Source: Botryllus schlosseri | Taxonomy: Eukaryota | Direction: 5' to 3' | Assembly (NCBI GenBank): GCA_051294905.1 | Contig: CM119373.1 | Coordinates: 1,986,001 to 2,050,000 of the forward strand | Length of the DNA stretch: 64,000 nucleotides | Shown here: piece after piece, positions 1,880 to 56,968 of the stretch | Numbering within the stretch: position 1 is the first letter of the stretch | How the letters are laid out: every line of letters begins with the position of its first letter | Position numbers and translations under genes: made by a program | Notes under the pieces: model-generated | Database searches by the model: none | Told to the model about the DNA's origin: nothing | The model's input: only the letters and a program-made list of their open reading frames with translations

Positions 1880-1969
1880 CTTCAGAAACTGCCCATCTTC
1901 GACAGTACACTACTCCCGGGTTCTTATTATGACGTGGCGGAAATTGCAAAAGCCACCAAATGCGCCGAA
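1880..1969 (+). pseudogene. Truncated type-B LRR exon (first repeat only)
   Basis: ctccaccag|LQKLPIFDSTLLPGSYYDVAEIAKATKCAE; similarity to exon B ends here and repeat sequence follows; upstream intron is homologous to that of 31923. Confidence 0.65.
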
Positions 1970-2214
1970 GTGTGTGTACCGAACCCAATTCCAACGTCCA
2001 CGTTTACGGTTTAATCTCTTGTATTCTTACCAACGCACACTCGGGGTCAACATCCAGTTACGACTAAAAAGAGTGGTGGGTTAGCGTAGTGGTGTAATCC
2101 ACTGCTGCAACACCTATGGGTTACTGGTGCGAGTGCGACCAATTTCGACTCTAGAATTCCTAATTAAGTGTTGGAGGTTTAGCTAGGCTCCTCCTCGCCA
2201 TCTCACACGCGTAA

Positions 2215-4163
2215 CAGACTTGGACAACTAGATAATTATAGTTGTCTAATTTCACTAAATTAGAGCGAAATAGCAGTAATCGAATTCTAATCTAATTTAT
2301 AAAATTTTTCTATGCTCCAATTCTAATTCTAATTCTGATTCTAATCTAAATTGAGAAACGTTCTTATACTCTAATTTTAATTCTAATCTAATTCATTGTT
2401 TTCCTGAAAATGCCTATTTGACTGCGGCATGTTGCCGCGAGTCCCTCTCGTACAGGGAAGTCCAGAGCCAAGACGCCATCGCATTACTTGCACCGTACAG
2501 AAATAGTAGTTATTGTGCGACGAATAAGAGCCATACTGGCATAGTAGCTTGTTTGTTGGTTTTCTTGAACAATTGCGAGGCTTATTGAATAAGCATGTTA
2601 TATGCGCCATGATAAGAAATGTTGCAATGTTCATTGATCTTTGCCTTATGAACTCTTTTCGGACTACTTCCAGTCACACACCCATTCATCATTGATATCC
2701 ATCTCGTTTGCATACGACCTCTTCAGTGTCTTTTACCGACGATTTTCGAAACTCGACTTTAATTGATCAATCTGGGCTTTTCTTACGGCACTGCATACGC
2801 AATGACGTCAGCTACTAACGATTCGATATTCGGGCAAGCCAGACATGTTGCTAGATGAAAGACTATCTCATCCTAAAGATTGGCTGTGGGGACACCCTAG
2901 CCCGTTTTCCAAGCGTTTCGGCGTCGCGTGCATTCTACGTCATGGCAATATGCCTATTCATACCAGCTGACTCTCCGTCGATGGAATGCTGATGCCTCCG
3001 TTGAAGCTATTTTCGCTATAGCGAGGAATAGTGTTGTTCAGGACAGACGAATAAGTTTTTTAAAACTACAACAATAATAATTTGAAACTGAAATCATTTT
3101 CGCATTTCAAAATGCTTTATTCGCGTTCTTCCAAATTCACAGATCAGATCGCCGGCCGCAAAATACAACCTCGCGGGCCGCCTGTTGATGACCCCTGGTA
3201 TTGTGCAAAACGAGCAAAGCTTGATATACGGACGTTAACCAATCTCTTTGTTATGAGACTCCATTGTGATTTGATATGAACTGAACTTTTTGCTGCATTT
3301 ATTTCTCATTCAAATTTTCATTCGATTTCCAAGTTTTTCCGAATTCAAATTCTGATGCTAATTATAATCTAATTTGGAAAAAAGCTGTGTAGCTTTAATT
3401 CTAATTCTAATCTAATTTGGAAAAATTGTATAGCTCTAATTCTAATTCTAATCTAATTTGGAAAAAGCTGTGTAGATGTAATTCTAATTCTATTATAATC
3501 TGGAAAAAAAGCTGTGTAGATTTAATTCTAATTTTAATTTAATTTGGAAAATATGCATAGCTCTAATTATAATTCTAATATAATTTGGAAAAAGCTGTGT
3601 AGATCTAATTCTAATTCTAATCTAATTTGGAAAAAGCTGTGTAGATTTAATTCTAATTTCAATCTAATTTGGAAAAATTGTATAGCTCTAATTATAATTA
3701 TAATCTAATTTGGAAAAAGCTGTGTGGATCTAATTCTAATTCTAATCTAATTTGGAAATAACTGTGTTGATCTAATTCTAATTCTATTCTAATCTGAAAA
3801 AAAGCTGTGTAGCTTTATTTCTAATTTGAATCTAATTTGGAAAAATTGTATAGCTCAAATTATAATTATAATCTAATTTGGAAAAAGCTGTGTAGATCTA
3901 ATTCTAATTCTAATCTAATTTGGAAATAACTGTGTTGATCTAATTCTAATTCTATTCTAATCTGAAAAAAAGCTGTGTAGCTTTATTTCTAATTTGAATC
4001 TAATTTGGAAAAATTGTATAGCTCTAATTATAATTCTAATCTAATTTGGAAAAAGCTGTGTAGATCTAATTCTAATTCTAATCTAATTTGGAAATAACTG
4101 TATAGCTCTAATTCTAATTCTAATATAATTTGTAAAAGCTTAAAAATTCTTAGTTGTCCAAGT
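2215..4163. mobile_element. Non-autonomous TIR element (CAGACTTGGACAACTAG...) with AT-rich subterminal repeats
   Basis: The left end cagacttggacaactaga matches the reverse complement of tctagttgtcc(t/a)agtctg (intact at ~12912-12929 and ~26268-26285). Probable 8-bp TSD Ncgcgtaa. Copies at 39604-41509 and 53375-55330. Confidence 0.65.
3355..4140. repeat. ~39-bp AT-rich minisatellite (aattctaattctaatctaatttggaaaaagctgtgtagatct variants)
   Basis: About 20 tandem units with a higher-order 3-unit pattern. Confidence 0.9.
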
Positions 4164-5678
4164 AAGCGGTGTCATATAAAAGCATCAGTGGGCCTTGCAG
4201 CAAGTCAGCAGCTACGGATTTTAAATGAAGCACATTGGCCAGGTGTAAATGACCATAGTATTCGACAAATCCCAAGATTACCTCAAAACAAACAAACAAG
4301 CGACTAAAAAGGGAGCATAAAAATACGCCAACTTCTATCGTCGTTACTGCCACTGATTTAGCGATCCATAACTGTACTCAACAGGCAAATCATCGCATTT
4401 TTGCCAATTTCATTGTTCGCGAATAAAGTCGTTGCTAGAATATAAACCCTATGATCCGTGATATGTTCTAATGTACTATTATGTATGTATATAATGATAG
4501 ATAATAAAGTATTCAAGTGAAAATACGGACATGTGACAAAATCTTTAAATGAGTTGACTGATGGTCCGGCCTGTGAGAGATTTGAAGGTTTGCATCCGAC
4601 CCGCGTCGCCTTTTCAGATTCACAATCCTGATCTAAGCTGAATCGCCATGACGAGATAGCATAATGGTATGATCCACGGCTGTAACACCAATTGGTTGCG
4701 GGTTCGATGCTGACCGAGGTCGACTCCAGAATTCCCAGCCGAGTGTTACAGATTTATCTAGGGCTATGCTACTCTTTATTCACCAGATCAGCGGTAGTGG
4801 TTTCTTAAAAAAGCCTAGAAGTGGATCGTGCTATGAGTGCTCTCAATATTGCAGGCCCTGAGTATCTTCTGCACAGCGATCAATGTATATTTTTATAATT
4901 GAATGCCTCTTGGCTTTGCATTCAGGACAGTTTGTTTTACATGCAATCGAAATTTAAATCATTGGTAAAACAGAGTATATATTGCACGACATTAATATTG
5001 CACACATTGTCTATTATAATATTTGAGATTCTATATAGTTGCTGAGTGACGTAAAGACCGAGTGAGTGTCTCACTTCGATTTCCCAAAAGTGTTTATGAA
5101 TACTGGCTGAGTGCCGTAGAAACCATATAGTACTGTCTTTATTGAGTGATCATTAGTAAATTAGTAATCATAAAAACTGCATAACGGTATGCTTTAAAGC
5201 TGCCAAAAACTGTAGACCTGCCGTCTCCGTGGATTCAATCGGACAGATTTACAAGCCGATATCCTAATGGCGACAGCATTTTGAAAGAGGCAGAGATTGC
5301 TATTATTCCATTCATCAGAATTCTACGTTGAAATCGGCCCCGCATATTTGTTACTCAGAAGACCGAGTTACAAATATTGCCAGGGACCTAGCTCGTCGGT
5401 AATTTTACAAATTTCTATTGTGTTTGAGTGTATTCGATCAAATGAAATCTAAAACATTATATTCGACTCGAGGATCAATTCTTGATTCGGAATCGTATCT
5501 TCCGAGTTCTCAATGTCGTCCAGCCACGATTGCAATTTTATTTTACTTGAAATGATGGCGAAGCAATCGTAGCACAGTAATGTGATACTAATAGTATTTT
5601 ACAGTTTAATGACAGAAATTTCAATTTCATTTCCGAAGGCTAATGAAAGTAATGTTATACGATATTTTATCATTTTAG

Positions 5679-5846
5679 TTGCAAAGGCTCAGTATCATCG
5701 ACAATTCAATGAATGAAGATGGATATGAAATACTCGTTCACATTCTGAAGCTGTCAGATTGCAAGGTACTGGTGCTCCAAAATTGTTGTCTCACCAAGAC
5801 TAAGTTGCAAGGAGTATTGAACGGATGTCGGGATCAAAATATCCAG
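5679..5846 (+). CDS. Internal coding exon type A1: two RI/NLR-like leucine-rich repeats (56 aa, phase 0-0)
   Basis: Acceptor cattttag|TTG, donor CAG|gtgcgt, 168 nt open. LQRLSIIDNSMNEDGYEILVHILKLSDCKVLVLQNCCLTKTKLQGVLNGCRDQNIQ fits LxxLxLxxN/C twice. Confidence 0.8.
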
Positions 5847-6506
5847 GTGCGTCATCATGAACAATCCGTGATATCCAAAAAGACATGTCATCTTACGATT
5901 CGAAATTGTTCGTCATCCTACTTCGCCTCAAATCCATGTAACATAAAATCGTTCACCATTTATTCTATCGTTTACCATTACTCGGCCATGTATTCCATGA
6001 AGCCAATTAAAATGACAGCATGTAACGAAGTTTATTTAAGCGCTGTTAACGAAACGACCGGTGGACGGTCATATTATCAATATATGTTATAGGATAATAA
6101 CCCACGTTAGAAATCTAACCACCAATGCCGAATGAGTAACGAAAATCAATTTAGTGTTTGATGTTTGACTCAAATGCACACGGGGCCAATTTTCAAATTT
6201 TTGACCACCCCGCGGAACACGGCGTCAATATGGGTATTCAATGTATGTTCAAGTATGTCGTATTTGACGAGGTGAAATTGTACTATTGGTCGGAATAGCA
6301 AATTGAGATTCCGCAAATATAGTGAACTTATGATTTACTACTTATTTTACCAATTTACGCGCGGCACGAATGAAAACCACATTCACAAATATTTGACTAA
6401 AATTGTCGTTGTACTAGGCAGGGAGTACGCATCATTTGTCACAATTATGAGAAATAGGCACCGTAGCCGAATCTAGGTTTGGGGTACCATATTGATAAGT
6501 GTAGGC

Positions 6507-7985
6507 CAGGGGTAGGCAAACCCCGGCACGCGTGCCATTTGTGCCACGCCAAATGATTTCACGCAAACGACATATTGATACCATGTTTTTGCAAAAAGTG
6601 AAACAGAAGTTTTCAAAACGTGAAAGGCTCGTAGGCGATCCAAAATTATTATTATTATTTCACATTTTACAGTGGTGCTTCTCGCCTTTTCCAGGCTATG
6701 TGCACCACGACACGAATATTTGGAATGTTCATAAGTCTTTGTTTTTGTGGTAATCTTGGGGACGACTTCTTCATTCTTTCGCACATCCAGACGTCAGTCT
6801 CTCTCGCACCCATGCGTCCCCGTCGAATTCTCTGCTGCCGACTTCTAGGACGGCTCACTTTCAATCTGGGCTTTTCAATGCACTGTAACTGCGGTGAGGT
6901 CGGCAATGGGTAGCCCAGAGAAACCTCCGACACATAGAGCCTGATGTGTTAATTATGTTATGGGAACCCCCAATAAATAGATAAATATATATGCATTTAT
7001 AAAATGTTTTAAAAATCTATGCATAGTGTACAGAAATGAGTCAACCGTATTAGCAGTTGTGAAAGAACGTCAACCGAATATCGTTTGAAAACGTTTGGAT
7101 GCTTTAGTCTCGGAGTGTTATTCACTGTGTAGCCTGTGGGATTGCAACTTCTGAACCGGCATTACGACGCTGGGCATCTTCACGCTATAGAATACACGAC
7201 CAAGATATAGAGTTTCGGACAACATCCGACCATGCGACTAACAGGCGGTCTATGCGTTGCCAAAATGATTGGCGGCGATAAAACCTTGAAACAAAATAGC
7301 CGCTGCATCATGGACAAAACGTTAGACATTGATATGTCCACTGGCAAAGCGCCGAAGTGACCAGCGCCGAATTGCCAGCGCCCGCAGCTTGAGCCGCACG
7401 GAAGATAATGAGCCCCGTGTCGAAATGCGAATCGTGTTCGTCTCTCGGAAGTAGAGTCTGGTGTGCACGCGATTCCATATCTTGAGCAACGACAATCTTT
7501 ACCGTTCGACTGCGACTGCCGACAAATCTAGTGTCAGACCGAACTTAATGTGACACCAAACCGATTTGAATGAGACTGTGGGGAGGGGGGAAACACTTTT
7601 CATCATCATCAGACCATATCATCGTAGCTACACTGATTGACCCGCCACTTACTGGATATGGTAACAAATATAGTGGACTTGGAAACGATCCAATCAACCG
7701 CAGAAGATCGATCATTGCCCAATGGCGCGACAGAAAATAAATTATGTAAATGTCGCGTAGGCCTACATATAAGCGATAGGTCGGGTGCGGTAGTGTCCAA
7801 AATTCAATCCCTTCAAGACCAATCAAGAATTGCCGTCGTGACGAATGGCGTTGCCAGGTTGGTGGTATTCCTTGCTGCTTGAAACGTTAAATAATAATAA
7901 ATTCAATGTTTGGCACGGAAACTAGTAAAAAATTGACATTTTTTGACATTTTGGCACGCTGCACATAAAAGGTTGCCGGCACCTG
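6507..7985. mobile_element. Non-autonomous hAT-type element (with internal repeat fragments)
   Basis: Termini CAGGGGTAGGCAA ... TTGCCGGCACCTG; 8-bp TSD gtgtaggc/gtataggc; empty site 'aagtataggctattg' at ~28751. Confidence 0.8.
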
Positions 7986-10900
7986 GTATAGGCTATTGAT
8001 CTTGTCATTGCCCAAGTCAAAATAAAACAGCGTTGGATTTCACTTTACTGGTGTCACAGCGGTGGAGCGTGCCGCTGCGGTATTTGCCATCTTTAATCGG
8101 CCATAAAGCTATGGATTAAGGGTTCAAAGATGCAACTGAGTGCACATTAAGGGGGAAACAGCATGCTAAATGTTGATATAACAACTTACGTCGATAGCGA
8201 AATACCATGTCACGAGCTTATCATCTAATACGATCCCCTGGTCACGCGAAAAATAATTTTTGCGTCCAGGTTATAAACATGTCACGACACTCCGAGTTAC
8301 TCGGAGTCGACTCGAGTCATTTTCACTTTTTATCACCGAGTCATTCTGACTAATTCAGCGAAAGGTCGCCTCCAACTCCAAGTCACATTTTTCAGTCTCG
8401 AATCATATACGGTTCATGTTTTATCATCAAGATTAGAATATTCTATGTAATAGCAGATCTTCCACCGCATAGTAGCGTTTGAAAGTGATGCCATATAGCG
8501 AACTTTAATCAGTAGTTGTATGTTTTTTTGGCAAATTTAAAGGAAATGATAACTTTTCAAATCTGTCAAAAAGAAACGTTGCACTGAGCTGCTTCCAAGT
8601 ATCGCCTCCTTGGAAATCCAAAATTTTGACGTGGCCGAGCAAAATGTCCTTGTGGGTCGCGTGTTCGGGACCCAGGCTTAGATCATACGGGTTACCACTA
8701 TCAAAACTACTGCTGGTGTAAATAGAGAAAGTAATGCCTAGCTTTGGCATGACGTTACTGGATTATTGCAAATTAATCGTCAAATATGCGGCAATACAAA
8801 ATTGACGATTTTGGACCGAAAAGTTAGCATTTCACCACACGCATGTCCGTTCTCTAAGGTTGCTTGTAAAATGCAAATTAAGACGGACGGAGCTATGTCG
8901 AACAATAGCAGAGAAATCTAGCGTACCGCCGTACATGCAGTGTGACATAATGCTTATTCTTTATGCGGAATGCGGTCACTAAATGTCGCTAAAAAGTCGC
9001 TGGTAATAACAACATGTCAATGCCTACGCGCGAATTTGCGTGCTTTTTGTGCTACCAAGAAACACCATGTCGATCCAAAAAAACTCCTAAAACCGAACTA
9101 ATCTCCATGCTAATATATTTTCATCATTTCTGGCCTTCAATATTATTCACGACACATCGCACCGTAGATATCTTGAAGATTGCGTTCTGCAACGAACTAT
9201 AGCACTGGTCAACAAAATGAAAAATAAAAACAATTGGCAGAACATCTAGGAACTGCTATAGGGTTTTCAAGGTTGCTGATGACGAATAGTACATTTGTTT
9301 TGCCAGATTGACTTGCCCACTAGACTTGAGTCTTTTCTCTGGGTCATTTGCTGTCATCATTCAAGAGTTCGGCTCTCTCTTTGTCTGAGCCTTTCAATGC
9401 ACTGTATTTATAGCGGGATCGGAGATGAGGAGCCCAGATAAACCTCCGACACATAGAAACATGGCAGAGCCGAGACTCGACCCGCCGTGACAGCAGTGTT
9501 TAACCAACTGCGCCACTCGCTTCCCCGTGACATAAATATATCCTTATTCTTATGACGCGGTCACATGTTAACGTATAGCTTATACAGACGTGGTGGTGTA
9601 CTAGCGTTACAGCTATAGGGATCGCTCGCATGATTATAACGATAATGAAGACGTCATAGTTCAGTCGTAACAAATGATCGATCGTGTTCTGTATTCTAAC
9701 TCTAATCTTTTTAATGCTGTCTGTTGATTCGTGCGTAACCTGAATAATTCCGACTTTCAGCAGCATCGGATTATTCGCACGTTTCCATACCACTGCTTCA
9801 CACCTACAGAATAGTCTGCCGATCACTGTCGCAACAAGAACCACAATTATACTCATTTATACGTTCATTGTATTTATTACTCTGAAATCAAACTCTTAAC
9901 AAAAACACGTACAATCGTTTCATTAATTTTTTTATCGTCACCAAAATAATTCAGTTATTCCTTGGTTGAAAAATTTTGAGCTCGTTTCGTCAAGAATGTT
10001 ATAGTATGATCTTCAAACACATCTGATGTTTTACTCTGTAACTGTTTCCCAGTCACGGAAAATTCATCCGGTTCCATGAATTCGATTATCCGAGGTTTTA
10101 GTGGTCCGAAACCTAGTGAAACATGAAAATGAGTCTGGCGCCCCCTATTTTAAGGACTGTAGTAAAAACCAATGGGTAAGTGGTCGAAGTCCGCTTTCGG
10201 GTTAGGAATTCACTATTAGACCTCTCGACTAATTAACGATATAATTTTTCATGCTGTTTTCGAGATCTAATCCAGGTTGTTATAACAACCATCGGGTAAG
10301 GACTACGGGCTCATGGCATTTGGTTCGAGATCGATGGACACATCTCGAATTCTCCTCTGCGATTGGCAATACGGTGAATAAAATTGTATTGGTTTCGTTT
10401 TATTGCTTTGTCTGACCACTTGATCAAATGAGAATGTGGTAGAGATTTGCTCACATTACATTTAGTGCTGCTCTTAGTTTCAACATGAATGCGGGTAACA
10501 ACACTCAGCAGTATCACCCTTTATGATACGATGAAGAAATATTCTGACGACATAATTTTGTAGCTCTCAAATACAAGCATATTTAATTACTCGTTTTTAC
10601 CAAAAAGCTACAAAACACCTTTATTGTACAAAGGACATCACTCTCGAAAGTTGTTCAGTAGCCTTTAGCGCCTTTACGATTTAGGCACGCAGTGCGCTTC
10701 AGGATAAAATACCTAGTTAAAAATATTTTATGGAAAACAACCCGAGCTATCAGTATAAGTATCAGTTTATTATTATTTTCATAATTTCAAAACACCACGA
10801 AACTGTGATAAAATGAGGGGATAGGAAGATGTCAAAACGACTTGGAGTAGCTAGCGTGAAAGGAGTGTTATAACGGGGAATTAGCAATCCAAAAGTACGC

Positions 10901-11251
10901 CAAATTCATTTTACATGATTTAAAATTAATCACTGCATTCATGAAAACAGGGGTCGGTTGATATTTCGCGATGAGCGCAACGAAAAACGTTGTGAATGAG
11001 CAGATTTTGTCGAATGTTAGTTTGCAATGAGAAGTCAGCAATAATCATATGTCCATACTACACCATATGCTGCGAGACAATTTTCTTCAGCGGCCCAACC
11101 GCCACCAGAGCCCAATGCTCCCTATTTCGTCCCCTGAGCGTTTCCGCCCCTTCAAAATTCAAGCCGCCCCCTGGTAGGCGCTGGAGACAAGGTAAAGAAC
11201 CACTGATCTAAATAATCACGAACTATATTAGTAAAATTACGTCTCCTCCAG

Positions 11252-11299
11252 CTTCATAAACTGCTCATCTTCGACAGAACAATGCTCCCGGGCGCATAG
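11252..11299 (+). pseudogene. Truncated type-B LRR exon ending in TAG
   Basis: ctcctccag|LHKLLIFDRTMLPGA*; homologous to the 5' end of exon B. Confidence 0.6.
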
Positions 11300-13462
11300 A
11301 AGAGTAGCGTACGGCCAGTGTTGCTGAATACAAATTCTGTAGGCGGAATTGGACTCTGAGCTGTCGTAGGAATTCGTCAGAAACAACATATACAAATGCG
11401 CGTGGTCTTATTCGTGTAGTTTTTGCGCTATCACGAAGCAACTAACGATCCAGATTAAACATTTAAATTCTAACCTTATCCAAGTCTATATCATGGTCTC
11501 ATGCTCAGTCTTCTAGAATGATAGATACTTTTGTGCTCAGCGCTTCTTTGGAAATTGTATCAATCATCACACCCATCTCTGATCTGAACATATAAAGTGT
11601 CATTACCATGTTTTCATCTGATATCAAACTAATCTAATTTGTGAATTGTTCTTATGATCTAATTTTACTTCTAATCTAATTTATAAAATGTTTCTATGCT
11701 CCAATTTCAATTCCAATCTAATTTATGAATTGTACTTATTCTCTAATTCGAATTCTTATCTAATTTGTGAAATGTTCCTATACTTTAATTTTAATTCTAA
11801 CCTAATTTATTGTTTTTCTGAAAATGCCTATTAGACCGCGGCATTTTGCAGCGAGTCCCTCTCGAACAGGGAAATTCAGAGCCAAGCCGCCATCGCATTA
11901 CTTACACCGTACATAATTAGTAGTTGTTGTGCGACGAATAATAGCCTACCGGCATGGTAGATTGTTCGTTTGTATTCTGGAACAATTGTGACGCTTATCG
12001 TCCAATCATGTTATTTGCGCCATGATAATGAATGTTGCAATGTTCATCGATCTTTGCCTTTGGAACTCTTTTCGGAGTACTTCCTATCACGCGTCCATTG
12101 ATCATCGATATCTATCTCGTTTGCATGCGTCCTCTTCAGTGTCTTTTGCTGACGATTTTAGAAGCTCGACTTCAATAGATCAATTTGGGGTTTTCTTACG
12201 GTACTGCATACGCAGTGAGGTCAAATACAAATGAATCGATATTGGGACTGGATAGACATGTAGCTAGGTGAAAGACTATCTCATCCTAAAGATTGATTGT
12301 GGGGAAGCTCAGGCCCGTTTTCTAAGCGTCTCGGTCTTGGGCTTGGCGGTGTCGGGTCCATTGTACGTCATGGCAATATGCCTATTCATACTAGCTGACT
12401 CGCCATCGATGCAATGCTGTTGCCATCGTTGAAGCCATTTCCGCTATCGCGAGGAATAGTGTTGTTGAGCACAGACGAATAGGTTTATTTAAAATAACAA
12501 CAATATTAATTTGAAAGTGAAATCATTTTCCGCATTTCAAAATGCTTTATTCGCCTTTATTCAAATTCACAGATCAGATTGCCTGCCTCAAAATACAGAT
12601 TCGCGGGCCGCGTGTTGATGACCTCTGATATAGTGCAAAACGAGCAAAGCTTGATATACAGACGTTAACCAGTCTCTTTGCTATGAGACTCCACTGTGAT
12701 TTGATATGTACTTAAATTTTGCTGCATTTATTTCTCATTCAGAATTCCATTCAATTTCCAAGTTTTTCCGAATTCAGTAGCCAAAGTCTAATTGTAATTA
12801 TAATCTAATTTGGAAATAACTGTGTTAATCTAATTCTAATTCTAATCTAATTTGGAAAAATCGTATAGCTCTAATTATAATTATAATCTGATTCGGAAAA
12901 GCTAAAAATTTTCTAGTTGTCCTAGTCTGTCGCGTAAGTGGCGTCTTATAAAAGCCTATGAGTGGACCGTGCTGCAGGTCAGCAGCTACGAAATTTAGAT
13001 GAAGCACATTGTCCTGGTGTAAATGACCATAGTAGTCGACAAACCCCATGAATACCTCAAACCAAACAAACAAGCGACTAAAAAGGGAGCATAGAAATAC
13101 GCCAACTTATATCGTCGTTAGTGCCACTGATTTAGCGCTCCATAACTCTACTCAACAGACAAATCATCGTATTTTTGCCAATTCCATTGTTCGGGAATAA
13201 AGTCGTTGCTAGAATATAAACACCATGATCCGTGATATGATTTGATGCACTATTAAGTATATATGATCGATACTAGAATATTCACGTGAAAAATAAGGAC
13301 ATGTGGAAACATTTTGAACCGAGTTGACTGATGGTCCGGCTCGTGACAGATTTGAAGGTATAAATCCGACCCGCGTCGCCATTTGAGTTTGACAACCCTG
13401 CTTCAAGCTGAATCGCCATAACAAGATAGCATAATGGTATGATCCACGGCTGCAACACCAAT

Positions 13463-15894
13463 GGGAGACATTCACAAACCACTTGGGGCGCCAACACCAC
13501 GCCCTATCGTCCGTAGTAAACAAACAAAACTTACAGCTATATTCGCTCGAAACCAGGTCAGCCACTGCCTGTTGGATTCGGGTAACAGAATTAATGTCTT
13601 GTATGTACGGAGTTTGAACATATTTACGACTGATGATTGAGTTCAGTGCAATTTATGAATTGTCAGGTTACTTCGTGTACCGATATTTCATTTCCAGAGA
13701 GTGACGTTTGAATATTAGCTGAGTGACATATATATTTCATTTTAATAGACTGTCATCTATCTACATTATAAAATGACACGATATTGCTGTGTACCTGGTT
13801 GCACGAGTCGGATTGGTGGTCATTTGATTCCTAAGTCACCAGGGAAGCTGATGAAATGGAGAGAAGCAATTAATAGATCAAACTCCAAAACGAAACAGCT
13901 TTGGACAGAGACATTGGGCAGAGGGCAGAGACATTGCTTGCTATGGTCATTTTCTTCCAAGTGATTATATGAGCCGAACATGAAACTTGAAAGACAGGAG
14001 GCAGTCCCATCAGTCTTTCAGCATGATAAAAGAACGCCACTAAAAACTGTCAGAAAGACAAACAATTCGAACCCATTTACACCAGAACCTACTGAAATAA
14101 TTCATTCCGGAACACATAGTGACCAGAAATTTCAAACAGACTCGGAAAATATGGGCATTCAGTGCCAACTAGGTGCTTCAATGCCAGCTTTCAGCTTAGA
14201 AAATATCAAGGATGATATTAAGCAGTGCATGGTATTTTACTGGATTTGATGACATCAAACAGTTTCTGCTTTTAAAGGACATTGCAATGTACGATGTTCA
14301 TCTATTGGAGTACACCTGTACGTTGTGTTCAAATGAAGAGCAAGTTTTTTCTGACACTAATCAAGCTCTTGATCATCAACTGCTTGGTATTGTTTCAGAA
14401 TCAACAGCTTCCCGCATTATTAATGCTTGCTTGGATCAAGCATATGTACTGTTTATCATCAAAATTACTAATTTCGCCTTCAAAACAAGTAATATTGGAT
14501 CCCATGCCAGATGATTTAAAAAACTATATCCATCAACGAGATAATTATTGACTGTACAGAAATCCCAATTGAGAAGCCATCTGATTTCCATGCACACTGC
14601 ACAGTCTGTTACATTCTCCACTTGAAAGAATGGAAATACCATGGAAGTATTAATTGGTAATGCACCCACGGGTGCTGTCTCCTTCATAAGTGACTGCTAT
14701 GGTGAATCCGTTAGTGACCGCAGCATTATTGAGCAATCTGATTTGCTGGCCGAAGCCAGAGCAACGTTTGAAAAGGGCGACAGTATCATGGCTGATAAAG
14801 GATACCTACTGCAAGGTTTGTTTGCACCATTCGATGTGAAAATCAACACCCCTACTTTGATGAAAGGCATGACTCAGCTCTCTCAGGAACAGCGGGTAGA
14901 GGATTACTCCATCTCCTCAAAACATGTACCGTACACCTTGTAAGGGTTACTGGTTATGCAAGGACATTCAAAATCATTCAAAATGTCTTGCCTTACAATC
15001 TCTTGCATTTGAAAAATGTAATAGTCTTTATCTGCTTTATGATTTTTAAATTTAGGAAAGACATACTTTGATATAGTCCTACATAATAGCATTTGATGCT
15101 TTTATTATTTTGTGTTTGCTGAAGCAGACTTGGTTAGTGATAATGATTGATTACTATTAGTGTTGCATGAATTTTCTTGCTCCCACTTCAATATTGATGC
15201 CGCCATAATAAACCGGAATATCACTGTACTGGATTTGATGACTGAACAGAAAACATATCACTACCTAGAGTCTAGACGCAAGTTTTGTTTTCATTTACTA
15301 AACGAGATACATAAAAACTGCCAATATACAGGTAGACTACGTAATCAACAGAAAGAATCATGGAATTTGGAAATACCAATAATCACCACGACGGCATGAA
15401 CGGTTTTGCTCAAAAAATCGTATTCAAAGCTACATTGCATTCAGCAGTTTTCAGTTTTTCGTCTTGCGGTAACACAATCTTGACCACCAAAAAAGGACGC
15501 CAATACATTTCGTAGAACTTTTGCAACTTCAGAATCCTAAATTTAGGAACAAATTATGGGTCAAACTCTATATCTTCCATGTGCACATTACGAAATGTAT
15601 GCATAAAACAACATATAGTTTCATACAAGCGCAAGTCATTTGGCCTTGTACTTGGGCATACCATCTGTGATTTTTTTTCAGATAATAGCCATCTGCAGCA
15701 ATCATCAAATATTGAAAATACTTTCAAGGTGTTATTAGGTCATCCTTTACCGTGTATGGCCACTTGACTTCCAACCAGCTACGCTAGGGATGTCAAAAGA
15801 CAACAAATCAAGACGACGTTTCTTTCGGTATCCAATGTAAGCAATGGATCACTAGGACGAGGTTTTGGCGCCCCTAAGTGTATGAATGTCTCCC
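13463..15894 (+). mobile_element. ISL2EU-type (Harbinger-related) DNA transposon, decayed
   Basis: AT target duplication (13461-62 and 15895-96). ~34-bp imperfect TIRs beginning GGGAGACATTCA. Empty site 'acaccaattggttgcg' at ~4685 and ~27021. Confidence 0.85.
13773..14990 (+). pseudogene. THAP-domain + HTH + DDE_Tnp_4 transposase pseudogene
   Basis: MTRYCCVPGC...W...CYGHF...AVPSVF (THAP), YFTGF, FLTLIKL, IIDCTEIPIEKP, VLIGNAPTGAVSFISDCYG..SD and IMADKGY, spread over several frames with stops. Confidence 0.85.
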
Positions 15895-16880
15895 ATTGGT
15901 TGCGGGTTCGAGTCTGACCCAGGTCCACTCCAGAATTTCCAGCCAAGCGTTACAGATTTATCTAGGGCTAGGCTCCTCTTCATTCACCAGATCGGCGGTA
16001 GTTGTTTCTTAAAAATGCCTAGAAGTGGACCGTGCTATGAGTGCTCTCAATATTGCAGGTCCTGGGTATTTTCTGCACAGCGATCAATGTATATTTTTAA
16101 AATTAAATGCCTCTTGGCTCTGCATTCAGGACAGTTTATTTTACATGCAATCGAAGTTTAAATCATTGGTAAAACAGAGTATATATTGCACGACATTAAA
16201 AGCTGGTGATTTTGTTTATTATAGCATTTGAGATTCTATATAGTTGCTTAGTGACGTATAGACCGAGTGAGTGTCTCACTTCGATTTCCCAAAAGTGTTT
16301 ATGAATACTGGCTGAGGCCGTACAAACCCTATTACTGTCGTTATTGAGTGATCACTAGTAAATTAGTAATCATAAAAACTGCATGAAGGTATGCTTTAAA
16401 GCTGCCAAACACTGTAGAACTGCCGTCTCCGTGGATTCAATCGAACAGATTTACATGCTCATATCCTAATGGCGACAGCATTTTGAAAGAGGCAGAGATT
16501 GCCATCATTCCAGTCATCAGAACTCTACGTCGAAATCGGCCCCACATATTTGTTCCTCAGAAGGCCGAGTTTCAAATATTGCCAGGGAACTAGCTCGTAG
16601 GTAATTTTACAAATCAATATTGTGTTTGATTGTACTCGATCAAATGAAATCTAAAACATTCTATTCGACTCGAGGATCAATTCTCGATTCGGAATCGTAT
16701 CTTCCTAGCCCTGGATGTCGCCCGGCCACGATTGCAATATTATTTTACTTGAAATGATGGCGAAGCAATCGTAGCAGAGTAATGTGATACTAATAGTATT
16801 TTACAGTTTATTGACAGGAATTTCAATTTCATTTTCGAAGGCTAATGAAAGTAATGTTATACGATATTTTATCATTTTAG

Positions 16881-17048
16881 TTGCAAAGGCTCCTTATCAT
16901 CGACAATTCAATGACTGAAGATGGATATGAAATACTCGTTCACATTCTGAAGCTGTCAGATTGCAAGGAATTGGTGCTCGAAAATTGTTGTCTCACCAAG
17001 ACTAAGTTGCAAGGAGTGTTGAACGGATGTCGGGATCAAAATATCCAG
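16881..17048 (+). CDS. LRR exon type A2 (56 aa, phase 0-0)
   Basis: Same splice sites as A1; LQRLLIIDNSMTEDGYEILVHILKLSDCKELVLENCCLTKTKLQGVLNGCRDQNIQ. Confidence 0.8.
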
Positions 17049-18860
17049 GTGCGTCATCATAAACAATCCGTAATATCCAAGAAGACATGTCATCTTACGA
17101 TTCGAAATTGTTCGTCATCCTACTTCGCCTCAAATCCATGTAATATACCATTCACCATTCACCATTTATTCTATCGTTTACCAATACTCGGCGTAGGTAA
17201 TTCGAATACCGCAGGGGTTTAGTATTTGTAACACAGATTACTTTGGATATGTTTAAAATTATTAACGACGTGACAGCGTAGATATCATCAATGTAGGAAT
17301 ATTCATGACATAAATCTAGCCGAAAAGGCCGAAAGGGTGATAAAAATCGTTTTAGGGTTTGTTGGTGCGGTTCCATTCACTTGTTGTCATGGATCGGCAT
17401 TTGGGAATTCTAGGAAAATGGTTGCTGGTAGAAATGCGAAAAATAATTTGCAGCTTTGGTATGGCGTCCTTGATCTACTGTGAGGTAATCTGCAGAGAAG
17501 AGCCGATGTTGCATTTATGATTTTGGACGAAAATTGGGCACACTTTCATACTTTTACGTTGCCTATAAATTAGGGTGGATAGAGCTATGTCGATTAATGA
17601 TTGTCAACTTGGGAGGTCAAGAAATAACAGCATGCAACAAAGTGACTGATAAAAATTGGCCCACAGCATGATGCACCATTATGCAAAACTTGCCCTCAGT
17701 TTTTGAAGACACCCCTTGATCAACTCTACCGGTGAATGCGATCACGGGGGCTGAAAAAGAATTAATGTTTGATAGGAATATGTGAAACTATCAACAATAA
17801 TGACGAAATTAGTGAATCTGAAAGTTTTTCGCACTTCGCGCGATCATAACCGTTCCCGTAACATGACCAATTGACCACTCGCGATTTCGGTGCCGGTGCG
17901 TGTAGTAAGCGAATATGAACTAATAGATAAGTCTGGAGCTCACCGGAAATGGAGATGAATCTCTTAACATCGGTATTTTGCATCCTGATAGTTCATCGCG
18001 ACTATGCCATGGAATGTGGCCGCAGGCTACATGATTAATCGTAATGCAGCCGTGAATAGGAGAAGGGTTTGCAACCACTGATTCACCCCTTGGAAATGAA
18101 TTCCAGCTAAGCTTTTCATTCAAGAAAGCTTGATTCTCATGCACTCAAAATTCAAATCATTCAATTTTTTTTCATCCCGGTGTTGAAGCATTTACAATTT
18201 GCCAGCGACGTCCAAACTAGTTGACAATACGCAACAGTATTTTAATAATCTGTAATATGCAGGCTATTGTGCTGCATCCGGAAAATTTCGCGAGCCTTAT
18301 CTTTCATTACGTGTCGCTATATATCTGGCCGCAAAACCATGTATTCCATGAAGCTCATTGTAAAATGACAGCATGTAACGAAGTTTATTTAAGCGCTGTT
18401 AACGAAACGACCGGCGGACGGTCATATTATCAGTATATATTATAGGATAATAGCCCACGTTAGAAATCTAACCACCAACGCCGACTGAGTAACGAAAATC
18501 CATTTAGTGTTTGATGTTTGACTGAACTGCACTCGGGGGCCAATTTTCAAATTTTTGACTACCCTGCGGAACACGACGTCAATATGGGTATTCAATGTAT
18601 GTTCAAGTATGTCGTATTTGACGAGGTGAAATTGTACTATTGGCCGGAATAGCAGATTGAGTTTCCGTAAATATAGTGAACTTATGATTTACTACTTATT
18701 TTACCAATTTACGCGTGACACCAATGAAAACCACATTCACAAATATTTGACTAAAATTGTCGTTCTACTAGGCAGGGAGTACGCATCATTTGTCGCAATT
18801 ATGAGAAATAGGCACCATGGCCGAATCTAGGTTTTAGGTGACATATTGATAAGTGTAGGC

Positions 18861-39414: not shown

Positions 39415-40744
39415 TATTCCGGTTCTGTAAACTATTCCTGTGCGTAGTCAGCCGAAAGCTTCGCTGGAAACAAACTTTCGCGCGGTTACTGGACTCGCGC
39501 AGCCTGTTCACTGTTTTGTTCAGTGTGGCCACCCTGTTGCTGTGGTTGGAGTGAGAACGAAACCGCGCGTTGGAATGTTCGATTGTGTGTGATCGCGGCT
39601 TAACAGACTTGGACAACTAGATAATTCTAGTTGTCTAATTTCACTAAATTAGAGCGAAATAGCAGTAATCGAATTCTAATCTAATTTATAAAATTTTTCT
39701 ATGCTCCAATTCTAATTCTAATTCTGATTCTAATCTAAATTGAGAAACGTTCTTATACTCTAATTTTAATTCCAATCTAATTCATTGTTTTCCTAAAAAT
39801 GCCTATTTGACTGCGGCATGTTGCCGCGAGTCCCTCTCGTACAGGGAAGTCCAGAGCCAAGACGCCATCGCATTACTTGCACCGTACAGAAATAGTAGTT
39901 ATTGTGCGACGAATAAGAGCCATACTGGCATAGTAGCTTGATTGTTGGTTTTCTTGAACAATTGCGAGGCTTATTGAATAAGCATGTTATATGCGCCATG
40001 ATAAGAAATGTTGCAATGTTCATTGATCTTTGCCTTATGAACTCTTTTCGGACTACTTCCAGTCACACACCCATTCATCATTGATATCCATCTCGTTTGC
40101 ATACGACCTCGTCAGTGTCTTTTACCGACGATTTTCGAAACTCGACTTTAATTGATCAATCTGGGCTTTTCTTACGGCACTGCATACGCAGTGACGTCAG
40201 CTACTAACGATTCGATATTCGGGCAAGCCAGACATGTTGCTAGATGAAAGACTATCTCATCCTAAAGATTGGCTGTGGGGACACCCTAGCCCGTTTTCCA
40301 AGCGTTTCGGCGTCGCGTGCATTCTACGTCATGGCAATATGCCTATTCATACCAGCTGACTCTCCGTCGATGGAATGCTGATGCCTCCGTTGAAGCTATT
40401 TTTGCTATAGCGAGGAATAGTGTTGTTCAGGACAGACGAATAAGTTTTTTAAAACTACAACAATAATAATTTGAAACTGAAATCATTTTCGCATTTCAAA
40501 ATGCTTTATTCGCGTTCTTCCAAATTCACAGATCAGATCGCCGGCCGCAAAATACAACCTCGCGGGCCGCCTGTTGATGACCCCTGGTATTGTGCAAAAC
40601 GAGCAAAGCTTGATATACGGACGTTAACCAATCTCTTTGTTATGAGACTCCATTGTGATTTGATATGAACTGAACTTTTTGCTGCATTTATTTCTCATTC
40701 AAATTTTCATTCGATTTCCAAGTTTTTCCGAATTCAAATTCTGA

Positions 40745-41490
40745 TGCTAATTATAATCTAATTTGGAAAAAAGCTGTGTAGCTTTAATTCTATTCTAATC
40801 TAATTTGGAAAAATTGTATAGCTCTAATTCTAATTCTAATCTAATTTGGAAAAAGCTGTGTAGATGTAATTCTAATTCTATTGTAATCTGGAAAAAAAGC
40901 TGTGTAGATTTAATTCTAATTTTAATTTAATTTGGAAAATATGCAGAGCTCTAATTCTAATTCTAATCTAATTTGGAAAAAGCTGTGTAGATTTAATTTT
41001 AATTTCAATCTAAATTGGAAAAATTGTATAGCTCTAATTATAATTATAATCTAATTTGGAAAAAGCTGTGTAGATCTAATTCTAATTCTAATCTAATTTG
41101 GAAATAACTGTGTTGATCTAATTCTAATTCTATTCTAATCTGAAAAAAAGCTGTGTAGCTTTATTTCTAATTTGAATCTAATTTGGAAAAATTGTATAGC
41201 TCTAATTATAATTATAATCTAATTTGGAAAAAGCTGTGTAGATCTAATTCTAATTCTAATCTAATTTGGAAATAACTGTGTTGATCTAATTCTAATTATA
41301 TTCTAATCTGAAAAAAAGCTGTGTAGCTTTATTTCTAATTTGAATCTAATTTGGAAAAATTGTATAGCTCTAATTCTAATTCTAATCTAATTTGGAAAAA
41401 GCTGTGTAGATCTAATTCTAATTCTAATCTAATTTGGAAATAACTGTATAGCTCTAATTCTAATTCTAATATAATTTGTAAAAGCTTAAA
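40745..41490. repeat. AT-rich minisatellite, paralogue of 3355-4140
   Basis: Same unit. Confidence 0.9.
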
Positions 41491-47579: not shown

Positions 47580-47747
47580 TTGCAAATGCTCGTTATCATG
47601 GACAATTCAATGAATGAAGATGGATATGAAATACTCGTTCACATTCTGAAGCGGTCAGATTGCAAGGAATTGCAACTCCAATATTGTTGTCTCACCAAGA
47701 CTAAGTTGCAAGGAGTATTGAACGGATGTCGGGATCAAAATATCCAG
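47580..47747 (+). CDS. LRR exon type A3 (56 aa, phase 0-0)
   Basis: Same splice sites; LQMLVIMDNSMNEDGYEILVHILKRSDCKELQLQYCCLTKTKLQGVLNGCRDQNIQ. Confidence 0.8.
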
Positions 47748-51907: not shown

Positions 51908-52307
51908 ACTTGACTTGACTAGTGACTTGACTAGTGACTTGACTCGTGACTTGACTCGTGACTTGACTTGACTTGACTTGACTTGACTTGACTTGACTTG
52001 ACTTGACTTGACTTGACTTGACTTGACTTGACTTGACTTGACTTGACTTGACTTGACTTGACTTGACTTGACTTGACTTGACTTGACTTGACTTGACTTG
52101 ACTTGACTTGACTTGACTTGACTTGACTTGACTTGACTTGACTTGACTTGACTTGACTTGACTTGACTTGACTTGACTTGACTTGACTTGACTTGACTTG
52201 ACTTGACTTGACTTGACTTGACTTGACTTGACTTGACTTGACTTGACTTGACTTGACTTGACTTGACTTGACTTGACTTGACTTGACTTGACTTGACTTG
52301 ACTTGAC
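51908..52307. repeat. (GACTT)n microsatellite, long allele
   Basis: ~400 bp, mostly perfect. Confidence 0.95.
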
Positions 52308-53039
52308 CCGAGTCACCTTTGAAAATCAAGTGACTTGACTTGACTCGAGTCAAAATGAATTGGCAACAAAACGTTTCCATGAATCTCGACGAAGTCACAA
52401 AATCAATGTAAATACAGGCCAATGGCACACAAAGGCAGACAAACGTTTACAGGGGATCCAAATATAAATAAGTAGTGGGACAGTATTGAATGCTTACACA
52501 TCGGAATTGTATACTATATTGTTCCACATAATTCCATCGTTAATAATTCAACGGTATGAAGTGTATGCTCGAGCAGTATAGCTAACCCGTCGCTTCCACA
52601 ATTGCATGTCTTAAATTGATATTTATCGAAACTTCAAGTCAAAAATATGGATGTGCGAACCTGAATCTAGTAGCTATGAAATTCTAAATCCGATATTGAT
52701 CGAATGAACCCTGCAAGATTGATATCTGAAATCGGTTCATCAAACAAACGGTATGTGCGAATTCACAATCGTAATATCGAGAATCAACATCTGTGACTTT
52801 TCAGTGTCTTCTGATGGGAGTGCAATTCTTCAAAAAATATCACAAACCATAACGTATTCTTTATTGCAGTCTTACCATAGCGGTACCCTATATAAAAAGA
52901 TTGATGTGGCAATTATACAATTCATTTTTTATGTCGAAACAATAATACACCGTGTCGACCGGCACTGATATCTTAATGTCTAATATAATGAAAATCGAAA
53001 CCACTAAGAATAATATTGGTAAAATTTCGTCTCCACCAG

Positions 53040-53129
53040 CTTCAGAAACTGCCCATCTTCGACAGTACACTACTCCCGGGTTCTTATTATGACGTGGCGG
53101 AAATTGCAAAAGCCACCAAATGCGCCGAA
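53040..53129 (+). pseudogene. Truncated type-B LRR exon, copy of 1880
   Basis: Same sequence as 1880-1969. Confidence 0.65.
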
Positions 53130-54524
53130 GTGTGTGTACCGAACCCAATTCCAACGTCCACGTTTACGGTTTAATCTCTTGTATTCTTACCAACGCACAC
53201 TCGGGGTCAACATCCAGTTACGACTAAAAAGAGTGGTGGGATAGCGTAGTGGTGTAATCCACTGCTGCAACACCTATGGGTTACTGGTGCGAGTGCGACC
53301 AATTTCGACTCTAGAATTCCTAATTAAGTGTTGGAGGTTTAGCTAGGCTCCTCCTCGCCATCTCATACGCGTAACAGACTTGGACAACTAGATAATTCTA
53401 GTTGTCTAATTTCACTAAATTAGAGCGAAATAGCAGTAATCGAATTCTAATCTAATTTATAAAATTTTTCTATGCTCCAATTCTAATTCTAATTCTGATT
53501 CTAATCTAAATTGAGAAACGTTCTTATACTCTAATTTTAATTCTAATCTAATTCATTGTTTTCCTGAAAATGCCTATTTGACTGCGGCATGTTGCCGCGA
53601 GTCCCTCTCGTACAGGGAAGTCCAGAGCCAAGACGCCATCGCATTACTTGCACCGTACAGAAATAGTAGTTATTGTGCGACGAACAAGAGCCATACTGGC
53701 ATAGTAGCTTGTTTGTTGGGTTTCTTGAACAATTGCGAGGCTTATTGAATAAGCATGTTATATGCGCCATGATCAGAAATGTTGCAATGTTCATTGATCT
53801 TTGCCTTATGAACTCTTTTCGGACTACTTCCAGTCACACACCCATTCATCATTGATATCCATCTCGTTTGCATACGACCTCGTCAGTGTCTTTTACCGAC
53901 GATTTTCGAAACTCGACTTTAATTGATCAATCTGGGCTTTTCTTACGGCACTGCATACGCAGTGACGTCAGCTACTAACGATTCGATATTCGGGCAAGCC
54001 AGACATGTTGCTAGATGAAAGACTATCTCATCCTAAAGATTGGCTGTGGGGACACCCTAGCCCGTTTTCCAAGCGTTTCGGCGTCGCGTGCATTCTACGT
54101 CATGGCAATCTGCCTATTCATACCAGCTGACTCTCCGTCGATGGAATGCTGATGCCTCCGTTGAAGCTATTTTCGCTATAGCGAGGAATAGTGTTGTTCA
54201 GGACAGACGAATAAGTTTATTTAAAACTACAACAATAATAATTTGAAACTGAAATCATTTTCGCATTTCAAAATGCTTTATTCGCGTTCTTCCAAATTCA
54301 CAGATCAGATCGCCGGCCGCAAAATACAACCTCGCGGGCCGCCTGTTGATGACCCCTGGTATTGTGCAAAACGAGCAAAGCTTGATATACGGACGTTAAC
54401 CAATCTCTTTGTTATGAGACTCCATTGTGATTTGATATGAACTGAACTTTTTGCTGCATTTATTTCTCATTCAAATTTTCATTCGATTTCCAAGTTTTTC
54501 CGAATTCAGTAGCCAAATTATGAT

Positions 54525-55310
54525 GCTAATTATAATCTAATTTGGAAAAAAGCTGTGTAGCTTTAATTCTAATTCTAATCTAATTTGGAAAAATTGTATA
54601 GCTCTAATTCTAATTCTAATCTAATTTGGAAAAAGCTATGTAGATGTAATTCTAATTCTATTATAATCTGGAAAAAAAGCTGTGTAGATTTAATTCTAAT
54701 TTTAATTTAATTTGGAAAATATGCATAGCTCTAATTATAATTCTAATATAATTTGGAAAAAGGTGTGTAGATCTAATCTGATTCTAATCTAATTTGGAAA
54801 AAGCTGTGTAGATTTAATTCTAATTTCAATCTAATTTGGAGAAATTGTATAGCTCTAATTATAATTATAATCTAATTTGGAAAAAGCTGTGTAGATCTAA
54901 TTCTAATTCTAATCTAATTTGGAAATAACTGTGTTGATCTAATTCTAATTCTATTCTAATATGAAAAATAGCTGTGTAGCTTTATTTTTAATTTGAATCT
55001 AATTTGGAAAAATTGTATAGCTCTAATTATAATTATAATCTAATTTGGAAAAAGCTGTGTAGATCTAATTCTAATTCTAATCTAATTTGGAAATAACTGT
55101 GTTGATCTAATTCTAATTCTATTCTAATCTGAAAATAAGCTGTGTAGCTTTATTTCTAATTTGAATCTAATTTGGAAAAATTGTATAGCTCTAATTATAA
55201 TTCTAATCTAATTTGGAAAAAGCTGTGTAGATCTAATTCTAATTCTAATCTAATTTGGAAATAACTGTATAGCTCTAATTCTAATTCTAATATAATTTGT
55301 AAAAGCTTAA
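54525..55310. repeat. AT-rich minisatellite, paralogue of 3355-4140
   Basis: Same unit. Confidence 0.9.
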
Positions 55311-56800
55311 AAATTCTTAGTTGTCCAAGTAAGCGGTGTCATATAAAAGCATGAGTGGGCCTTGCAGCAAGTCAGCAGCTACGGATTTTAAATGAAGCAC
55401 ATTGGCCCGGTGTAAATGACCATAGTATTCGACAAATCCCAAGATTACCTCAAAACAAACAAACAAGCGACTAAAAAGGGAGCATAAAAATACGCCAACT
55501 TCTATTGTCGTTACTGCCACTGATTTAGCGATCCATAACTGTACTCAACAGGCAAATCATCGCATTTTTGCCAATTTCATTGTTCGCGAATAAATTCGTT
55601 GCTAGAATATAAACCCTATGATCCGTGATATGTTCTAATGTACTATTATGTATGTATATAATGATAGATAATAAAGTATTCAAGTGAAAATACGGACATG
55701 TGACAAAATCTTGAAATGAGTTGACTGATGGTCCGGCCTGTGAGAGATTTGAAATTGAAGGTTTGAATCCGACTCGCGTCGCCTTTTCAGATTCACAATC
55801 CTGCTCTAAGCTGAATCGCCATGACGAGATAGCATTATGGTATGATCCACGGCTGTAACACCAATTGGTTGCGGGTTCGATGCTGACCGAGGTCGACTCC
55901 AGAATTCCCAGCCAAGTGTTACAGATTTATCTAGGGCTATGCTCCTCTTTATTCACCAGATCAGCGGTAGTGGTTTCTTAAAAAAGCCTAGAAGTGGATC
56001 GTGTTATGAGTGCTCTCAATATTGCAGGCCCTGAGTATCTTCTGCACAGCGATCAATGTATATTTTTATAATTGAATGCCTCTTGGCTTTGCATTCAGGA
56101 CAGTTTGTTTTACATGCAATCGAAATTTAAATCATTGGTAAAACAGAGTATATATTGCACGACATTAATATTGCACACATCGTCTATTATAATATTTGAG
56201 ATTCTATATAGTTGCTGAGTGACGTAAAGACCGAGTGAGTGTCTCACTTCAATTTCCCAAAAGTGTTTATGAATACTGGCTGAGTGCCGTAGAAACCCTA
56301 TAGTACTGTCTTTATTGAGTGATCATTAGTAAATTAGTAATCATAAAAACTGCATAACGGTATGCTTCAAAGTTGCCAAACACAGTAGACCTGCCGTCTC
56401 CGTGGATTCAATCGGACAGATTTACTTGCCGACATCCTGATGGCGACCACTTTTTGAAGGAGGAATAGATTGCTATTAATCCAGTTAACAGAATTCAACG
56501 TCGAAATCAGCCAACACATATTGTACTCAGAGGACCGAGTTTCCAAATAATGTCAGCCAAATAGCTCATAGGTAATTTTACAAATTTCTGTTGTGTTTGA
56601 GTGTATTCGATCAAATGAAATCTAGAACATTCTACTCGACTCGAAGATCAATTCTCGTTTCGAAATCGTATCTTCCGAGCCCTCGATTTCGCCCAGTCAC
56701 AGTTGCAAGATTATGGTATTTTAAAGTCTACTGACAGTAATTTCGATTTCATTTTCGAAGCATAATAAAAGTCATTTTATCCGATATTTGATCATTTTAG

Positions 56801-56968
56801 TTGCAAAGGCTGATTATCGTCGACAATTCAATGAATGAAGATGGATATGAAATACTCGTTCACATTCTGAAGCGGTCAGATTGCAAGGATTTGCAACTCG
56901 AAGATTGTTGTCTCACCAACACCAAGTTGCAAGGAGTATTGAACGGATGTTGGGATCAAAATATCCAG
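56801..56968 (+). CDS. LRR exon type A4 (56 aa, phase 0-0)
   Basis: Same splice sites; LQRLIIVDNSMNEDGYEILVHILKRSDCKDLQLEDCCLTNTKLQGVLNGCWDQNIQ. Confidence 0.8.

Follow-up and report, generated by a model that had tools for sequence, protein, structure and literature searches.

We analysed a stretch of 64 kb from the genome (495 Mb) of the tunicate Botryllus schlosseri, namely positions 1986001-2050000 of contig CM119373.1 (assembly GCA_051294905.1), which carries a series of widely spaced exons encoding leucine-rich repeats (LRR). This whole stretch is called the window; positions without a prefix are counted from its first base, and those preceded by C3 are counted along the contig. We read the window as an internal piece of one giant NLR (nucleotide-binding domain and LRR receptor) gene, grown by copying of blocks made of exon and intron, whose exons are joined into a long solenoid, and we give this reading a probability of about 0.6. 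In such a gene the ligand-sensing domain would be encoded by at least 19 frame-preserving exons of 168 nt, of two types (A and B), each specifying two LRRs of 28 residues. Segmental duplication and unequal crossing-over, acting repeatedly on exon-plus-intron blocks of 4-15 kb, would have enlarged the array; transposons and satellites would later have filled the duplicated blocks, the process would have broken some B-type exons, and copies within and between three neighbouring giant genes would exchange sequence. In the mRNA the exons would most likely be joined consecutively, giving an LRR solenoid of great length, and cassette skipping would go no further than the ordinary kind open to every in-frame LRR exon.

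Intact exons and their gene frame

A profile hidden Markov model (HMM) of the exon family was run on all six-frame open reading frames (ORFs) of the window of at least 20 residues. Exactly five full-length exons were found, all on the + strand (E 1e-28 to 1e-34):

5679-5846, + strand: intact type A LRR exon, 168 nt, phase 0, bordered by ttttag and gtgcgt, two predicted 28-residue LRRs of the ribonuclease inhibitor (RI) type
16881-17048, + strand: intact type A LRR exon, 168 nt; nucleotide-identical copy at C3:1820251
31923-32090, + strand: intact type B LRR exon, 168 nt, bordered by ccag and gtaagt; protein-identical copy at C3:2118076
47580-47747, + strand: intact type A LRR exon, 168 nt
56801-56968, + strand: intact type A LRR exon, 168 nt

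In all five, frame 1 is open and the borders are ag and gt; stops occur in frames 2 and 3 of the type A copies and in frame 3 only of the intact B exon. The five are mutually different in sequence, and the introns that separate them measure 11.0, 14.9, 15.5 and 9.1 kb from the coordinates. Equal length and equal phase are kept across the tandem paralogues, in the five 168-nt phase-0 exons of the window and in 27 A-type exons of the array. The initial annotation had described five intact, symmetric phase-0 exons of 168 nt on the + strand, joinable in frame and separated by introns of 9-15 kb, and both the profile HMM with translation and the measured introns agree with it. It had also claimed that no start, NACHT or other host exon lies between them. 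Searches by tblastn bear this out, with no match of the NACHT exon in the window at E<=10 and none of the terminal exon, and Pfam recognised nothing but PIF/Harbinger transposase in 144 window ORFs (24 + 120). The start that it gave, 1880, is not an intact exon; this is a truncated B copy, described below. The donors were given correctly as gtgcgt for type A and gtaagt for type B, but the former, which had been called non-consensus, is not aberrant: it is conserved in 16 of 16 type A copies examined.

The family to which the exon products belong was approached with an alignment of 19 units (A1). Conserved positions are L4, I6, N/D9 and M11 in the first repeat, then L31, L33, C36 and L38 in the second, 27-28 residues on. 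Searched exhaustively against 1.84 billion protein representatives, the A1 profile matches proteins with Pfam-certified LRR_6 repeats, including PYRIN-FISNA-NACHT NLRs, at E 2.7e-13 to 6e-6. These matches include P0015 (2.7e-13), P0017 (4.4e-12, 18 stretches), P0020 (4.8e-10), P0021 (5.4e-10) and the PYRIN-FISNA-NACHT-LRR_6 protein P0026 (3.1e-9). LRR_6 is present in 9 of the 15 matches scanned, with E values of 1e-17 to 6e-111 on the five proteins just named. In a profile search of the PDB, ribonuclease inhibitor ranks first (E 0.15); phmmer searches of the PDB with the Styela clava homologues P0006 and P0007 gave no matches. Every ESM look-alike with a named family is LRR_6. Homologous-protein searches returned no longer relatives of the exon alignment and none of the NACHT exon, whose near relatives there were two Logan NACHT fragments only. 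We accept the predicted exon products as RI-type LRRs, with two 28-residue repeats per exon.

The distribution of the exon family along the contig supplies the gene frame. Type A and B exons, spaced by 1-26 kb, occupy the + strand between C3:1.471 and C3:2.163 Mb and sit between NACHT and terminal exons, which delimit three tandem frames of 179, 142 and 237 kb. In this region the family NACHT exon is found only at C3:1422156, 1696722 and 1929385, the post-NACHT exon only at C3:1427945, 1700144 and 1930642 (37 of 37 candidates scored), and the stop-bearing terminal exon only at C3:1600608, 1838856 and 2166507 (35 of 35 candidates scored), all of them on the + strand. The window is wholly within the third frame, which runs over 237 kb from the NACHT exon at C3:1929385 to the terminal exon at C3:2166507 (2166507-2166689); there is one of each, the NACHT exon 55 kb 5' of the window and the terminal exon 116 kb 3' of it. 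This frame contains at least 15 A and at least 4 B-like exons (counts per frame are lower bounds), hence at least 19 exons, 1064 residues and about 38 LRRs.

The 404-aa NACHT exon of the first gene matches PF05729 at E 1e-14. The region C3:1929385-1930530 (+) is 85% identical to this exon, and no other copy occurs before C3:6.03 Mb. Both the NACHT and the terminal exon of the third gene are open. What led to the terminal exon was its weak resemblance (E 0.008) to the C-terminal ends of Styela clava gene models; in the first gene it ends with a stop and has a phase-0 acceptor, matching the phase of the LRR exons, so that the frame is kept whichever A or B exon precedes it. The family also includes compact paralogues (C3:7175115-7195347 is one), in which the NACHT-to-terminal span is 20-39 kb and LRR exons are 0.6-3 kb apart; the giant genes are 4-12 times as long. 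One small gene per exon, which the initial annotation had named as the case that would speak against an array, is rejected: between the exons there is no start and neither a NACHT nor any other domain, and a single NACHT exon upstream and a single terminal exon downstream were found.

A separate observation concerns the 5' part of the third gene, where the NACHT exon and the next exon form one 483-aa open frame (C3:1929385-1930815). The two are 0.6-4.6 kb apart in the two sister genes and in the compact paralogues, and the third gene looks as if it had undergone a precise intron loss at this point.

Selection, exchange and growth of the array

Selection was examined on the 16 of the 27 A copies that were available with their flanks, 14 of which are closely related; the underlying sequence is C3:1.42-1.62 Mb, eight 3-kb loci and the window. 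Differences among the 14 close copies fall nearly all in codons 3, 5, 7, 12, 30, 32, 34 and 35. Of these eight variable codons, seven are at predicted surface positions of the beta strands. For the eight the Nei-Gojobori averages are 0.347 for nonsynonymous differences per site (pN) and 0.161 for synonymous ones (pS), a ratio of 2.16. For the framework codons they are 0.015 and 0.073, a ratio of 0.20. The framework ratio is 0.40 in comparison with two older copies, 73% identical, and the mean divergence of the upstream introns among the close copies is 0.129. Neither common ancestry nor recombination enters into these pairwise statistics, which point strongly in one direction but do not amount to a formal test. 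Codons with at least three residues fall in 7 of 9 cases within the ten surface positions defined a priori from the LxxLxLxx motif (hypergeometric p 1.7e-5).

None of the 27 A-type array matches contains an in-frame stop, for 0.41-0.75 expected per copy in a neutral simulation (3-10% substitution); this is only supportive, because the copies are not independent. Donors and acceptors are kept in 16 of 16 A copies, the old ones included, and within the intron conservation is highest in the 50 nt next to the exon, where mean pairwise identities are 0.90 and 0.89 before falling to 0.45-0.7 farther out. Judged from these sequence comparisons, the surviving exons look functional, as working coding sequence with a scaffold under purifying selection and solvent-exposed beta-strand residues that diversify. 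Near the type A donor we also noted a conserved 18-nt near-palindrome, located 31-48 nt 3' of it (17079-17096 and 56999-57016, and four other copies).

Copies of the exon do not follow a single history. Incompatible pairs account for 96 of the 210 informative site pairs, with p 0.0036 in a permutation test of the pairwise homoplasy index (PHI) type, and the copies fall into other groups by their upstream flanks than by their downstream ones. Exon 16881-17048 is the same at all 168 nt as the exon at C3:1820251 in the neighbouring giant gene; upstream flanks of these two differ by 2.5% and downstream flanks do not align. Between the exon at 56801 and that at C3:2103033, 17 of 168 sites differ in the exon and 28 of 1200 in the flanks (p 7.5e-6). 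The contrasts between exon and flanks, together with the incompatible sites, suggest that variable codons are shuffled by unequal crossing-over or by exon-centred conversion. An identical exon in two giant genes with unlike flanks would be a sign of exchange between genes.

The DNA between the exons was then compared with itself. The introns are a mosaic of segmental duplicates of each other, at 81-99% identity, which indicates that exon and intron were copied together. Two of these duplicates are long:

16793-23924, + strand: segmental duplicate of 7.1 kb, 97.8% identical to 56713-63864; begins 88 nt 5' of an A exon
1089-5535, + strand: segmental duplicate of 4.5 kb, 97.5% identical to 52251-56708; carries a truncated B copy and the intron satellite

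Besides the single intact type B exon, the window contains four broken ones:

1880-1978, + strand: truncated type B copy that retains its acceptor and some 31-33 codons at its start, followed by unrelated repeat sequence and an in-frame stop, no donor
36210-36305, + strand: truncated type B copy, near-identical to the copy at 1880; profile positions 1-33
53040-53138, + strand: truncated type B copy, near-identical to the copy at 1880; profile positions 1-33
24734-24778, + strand: type B exon fragment; first 15 codons (profile positions 1-15), then stops

In the first giant gene, the type B exon at C3:1550400-1550564 is 5'-truncated, has no acceptor and has its first 18 codons replaced. This different kind of break indicates that B-type exons were broken more than once and in different ways, and A-type exons were not. 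About 200 nt 5' of each truncated B copy lies a weak LRR-like relic on the + strand (1617-1685, 35947-36012 and 52777-52842; profile positions 2-24, E ~2-3), which may be what remains of a further repeat exon.

Two pieces of a transposable element were recognised in the introns:

36887-38206, + strand: PIF/Harbinger transposase ORF, intronic, apparently intact, 439 aa (DDE_Tnp_4, E 3.7e-33)
14626-14940, + strand: Harbinger transposase fragment, intronic, decayed (DDE_Tnp_4, E 6e-15)

The first helps explain why, in its unit, truncated B copy and A exon lie farther apart. The intervening DNA also includes tandem arrays of 42-nt, 23-nt and 5-nt units. The 42-nt intronic satellite has a higher-order period of 168 nt (3351-4137, 40740-41483 and 54523-55304) and is duplicated along with the unit, between truncated B copy and A exon; that this period equals the exon length is probably a coincidence. 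The 23-nt repeat (CCGGCAACCCTAATATCCCACCT, ~33 copies at 29294-30023) has the strongest GC skew of the window, -0.35. Over the whole window Rfam gave 0 matches at the gathering threshold and ARAGORN 0 tRNAs.

Splicing and competing explanations

Consecutive joining of such exons into a long solenoid has precedent in other species. Among Styela clava models, the stretches matching the exon profile within one protein number 32 in XP_039248824, 22 in XP_077976009 and 10 in LOC120336943. In a continuous Logan-derived ORF from another species (P0010), 56-residue units are joined in the same register and followed by the same terminal cap; this ORF has no match in the present genome at E<=1e-8, and so it is a cross-species precedent only. 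Since the Styela clava models hold 22-32 units per protein, a long solenoid is the best reading of the array. The initial annotation had hesitated between one long solenoid and a Dscam-like choice of exons: the first fits the Styela models best, and the second, or any combinatorial use, is left unsupported. LRR exon skipping was not seen among the isoforms of LOC120336943: X1-X4 differ by one residue or by an alternative 3' end and show no differences in the LRR exons.

Several observations weigh against this reading of the locus. RNA was sought in four bulk RNA-seq runs from two studies (~33.5 million records, 6-13% of each run, tissues unspecified) over positions 4300-24299 of the window, without a positive-control locus. 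Depth was 0 in all four runs over the bin containing exon 5679-5846 and over the bin with the start of exon 16881-17048, it was at most 0.27 in the bin with the end of the latter, and no read joints were seen at exon borders. A listing of sequencing runs for window positions 5001-15000 contained no RNA run holding that sequence. No Pfam LRR family is recognised in the 19 units at E<=10 or in the exon ORFs at E<=0.01; the repeat regions of Styela clava are likewise without a Pfam LRR match. To our knowledge, about 38 RI-type LRRs far exceed any solved NLR or RI structure, and inclusion of all exons is thus not self-evident. The Styela models are automatic (Gnomon) predictions. That NACHT, LRR and terminal exons belong to one transcript is deduced from their order and strand only. 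With many duplicates at 97-99% identity, part of the copies may not have had time to decay, and the assembly could overstate their number; in this connection, exons identical in protein sequence are found far apart on the contig (2017923/2118076, 2002881/1820251 and 2033580/1812552).

All the RNA reads that could be placed were partial matches to SINE-like (short interspersed nuclear element) pieces. Two of these, derived from tRNA (9408-9526 and 21643-21701), attract thousands of partly matching reads in all four runs and make up nearly all the RNA coverage; ARAGORN calls no tRNA gene in them.

The scarcity of reads is one argument for a largely dead or silent array, in which intactness would merely reflect recent duplication and gene conversion from a few functional copies. 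RNA depth is zero on exon 5679-5846 and near zero on exon 16881-17048 in the four runs, of the five type B copies of the window only one is intact and further duplication of the broken form has occurred, and the genes, at 4-12 times the length of their compact paralogues, have introns swamped by transposons and satellites with many blocks at 97-99% identity. Decay of this kind would however hardly leave a framework pN/pS of 0.20 between young copies and of 0.40 in comparisons with the older ones (73% identical), nor an excess of replacements exactly at the predicted surface codons. With 27 of 27 A copies free of stops, splice sites and their adjacent 50 nt conserved, and the NACHT and terminal exons open, we consider a silent array unlikely. 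The blocks at 97-99% identity and the distant protein-identical exons could also come from the assembly, if mis-assembled haplotypes or collapsed and expanded repeats had added copies to a gene that is in truth shorter. Such inflation seems to us very improbable, for the copies differ in their flanks and in their order, they are not colinear, and the five exons of the window are all different.

Other explanations accept the exons as useful and differ in how they are used. Regulated splicing of the Dscam type, combinatorial or mutually exclusive, would put a varying subset of A and B exons into each mRNA and yield a repertoire of isoforms. The exons would lend themselves to it, being symmetric, in phase 0 and self-contained as units of two LRRs, with a terminal exon that accepts phase 0 and with variation that clusters in those residues of each exon predicted to face the ligand; the introns are of 9-15 kb, about 38 LRRs would be unusually many if all were included, and examples of alternatively used modular LRR exons are on record for human NLRP3 (PMC6642158) and for brown-alga ROCO genes (PMC11378527). 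But NLR genes as a rule have two LRRs per LRR exon and strictly preserve the frame (Hoss 2019, PMC6642158), and for this reason symmetry gives no special support to combinatorial splicing. In addition, the Styela models string 22-32 units, the isoforms of LOC120336943 involve no choice among LRR exons, and the four RNA-seq runs bring no transcript data in support. The flanks (160 nt) of an A exon and a B exon, taken as reverse complement, were compared with 330 kb excluding the 5' 55 kb of the gene in search of complementarity of the docking/selector kind, and none was above chance (best 14 nt, E 0.13). Splicing of this type is quite improbable in our estimate. We are just as doubtful of its extension to a splice-selected repertoire, in which cells or transcripts would carry different subsets of the at least 19 exons and germline exchange would renew the cassettes; if true, this would be a combinatorial intracellular receptor system in an invertebrate chordate. 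Exchange is also the starting point for seeing in the array a germline reservoir of cassettes, used as conversion donors for a smaller set of expressed LRR exons, in the manner of pseudo-V genes or, if somatic, of the variable lymphocyte receptors (VLR) of lampreys. The mosaic of shared variable codons with incompatible sites, and the identical exon found in two genes with different flanks, would be expected of it. Every A cassette keeps its acceptor and its donor, however, which a pure conversion donor does not need, and the array lies on the coding strand, flanked by a NACHT exon and a terminal exon of the same gene; there is very little chance that such a reservoir is the right explanation.

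Comparison with known systems

Taken as a giant gene with a long solenoid, the locus is an animal NLR with exon-modular RI-type LRRs, of an ordinary kind and extreme in gene length and repeat number. Five orphan exons are now placed in a defined gene frame, and a tunicate NLR would have extended its sensor domain across hundreds of kilobases, to some 38 repeats or more. A literature search on tunicate NLR LRR arrays found no paper describing this NLR family (supplements lay outside the search). The best relatives in the databases are proteins of Styela clava. The same repeat family is found there in XP_039248824.1 (2508 aa), XP_077976009.1 (1383 aa) and LOC120336943, with NACHT, NOD2_WH and Death domains 5' of the repeats and a similar terminal cap (E 0.008), although the identity of the NACHT domain is just 32-36%.

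The Dscam1 gene of arthropods has mutually exclusive clusters of tandem paralogous exons, of the same length and in frame, with variable binding residues. The present exons encode LRR and not Ig domains, they are spaced by 10 kb and not by hundreds of bases, and they give no sign of a choice of one among many. VLR-type somatic cassettes have no splice signals and belong to an incomplete germline gene, whereas 16 of 16 A copies keep ag and gtgcgt here. Whether invertebrate chordates diversify their innate receptors through exon choice could be put to a concrete test at this locus.

A similar exon structure is known from the LRR domains of vertebrate NLRs such as human NLRP3 (PMC6642158): RI-type LRRs lie 3' of NACHT, two per exon and with the same border within the repeat, and exons can be skipped without frameshift. 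The exons have 168 nt here (28+28 residues) and 171 nt in NLRP3 (28+29). NLRP3 has a compact run, whereas at least 19 exons extend here over ~230 kb with introns of 4-25 kb and hypervariable surface codons. Alternative splicing was shown for exon 5 of NLRP3, and not for the exons studied here. For the zebrafish NLR-B30.2 genes, positive selection has been placed in the B30.2 domain rather than in the LRRs (PMC4852459).

Two further systems share the mode of diversification. LRR-ROCO and NB-ARC-TPR genes of brown algae (Teng et al. 2024, PMC11378527) also have tandem in-phase repeat exons that shuffle and evolve under diversifying selection, in candidate receptors of the STAND (signal transduction ATPases carrying numerous domains) or GTPase type, and combinatorial use was proposed for them. 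They belong to another lineage and another NTPase, their 72-nt exons are in phase 2 with one LRR each, and alternative transcripts have been reported for them. In the fungal NWD genes het-d and het-e (Paoletti et al. 2007, PMC1805685), highly conserved repeats are exchanged within and between STAND paralogues and a few surface codons are positively selected; these are WD40 repeats within one exon, unlike the LRR exons with long introns found here. Surface diversification combined with concerted exchange is a signature well described for NLR-type receptors of plants and fungi.

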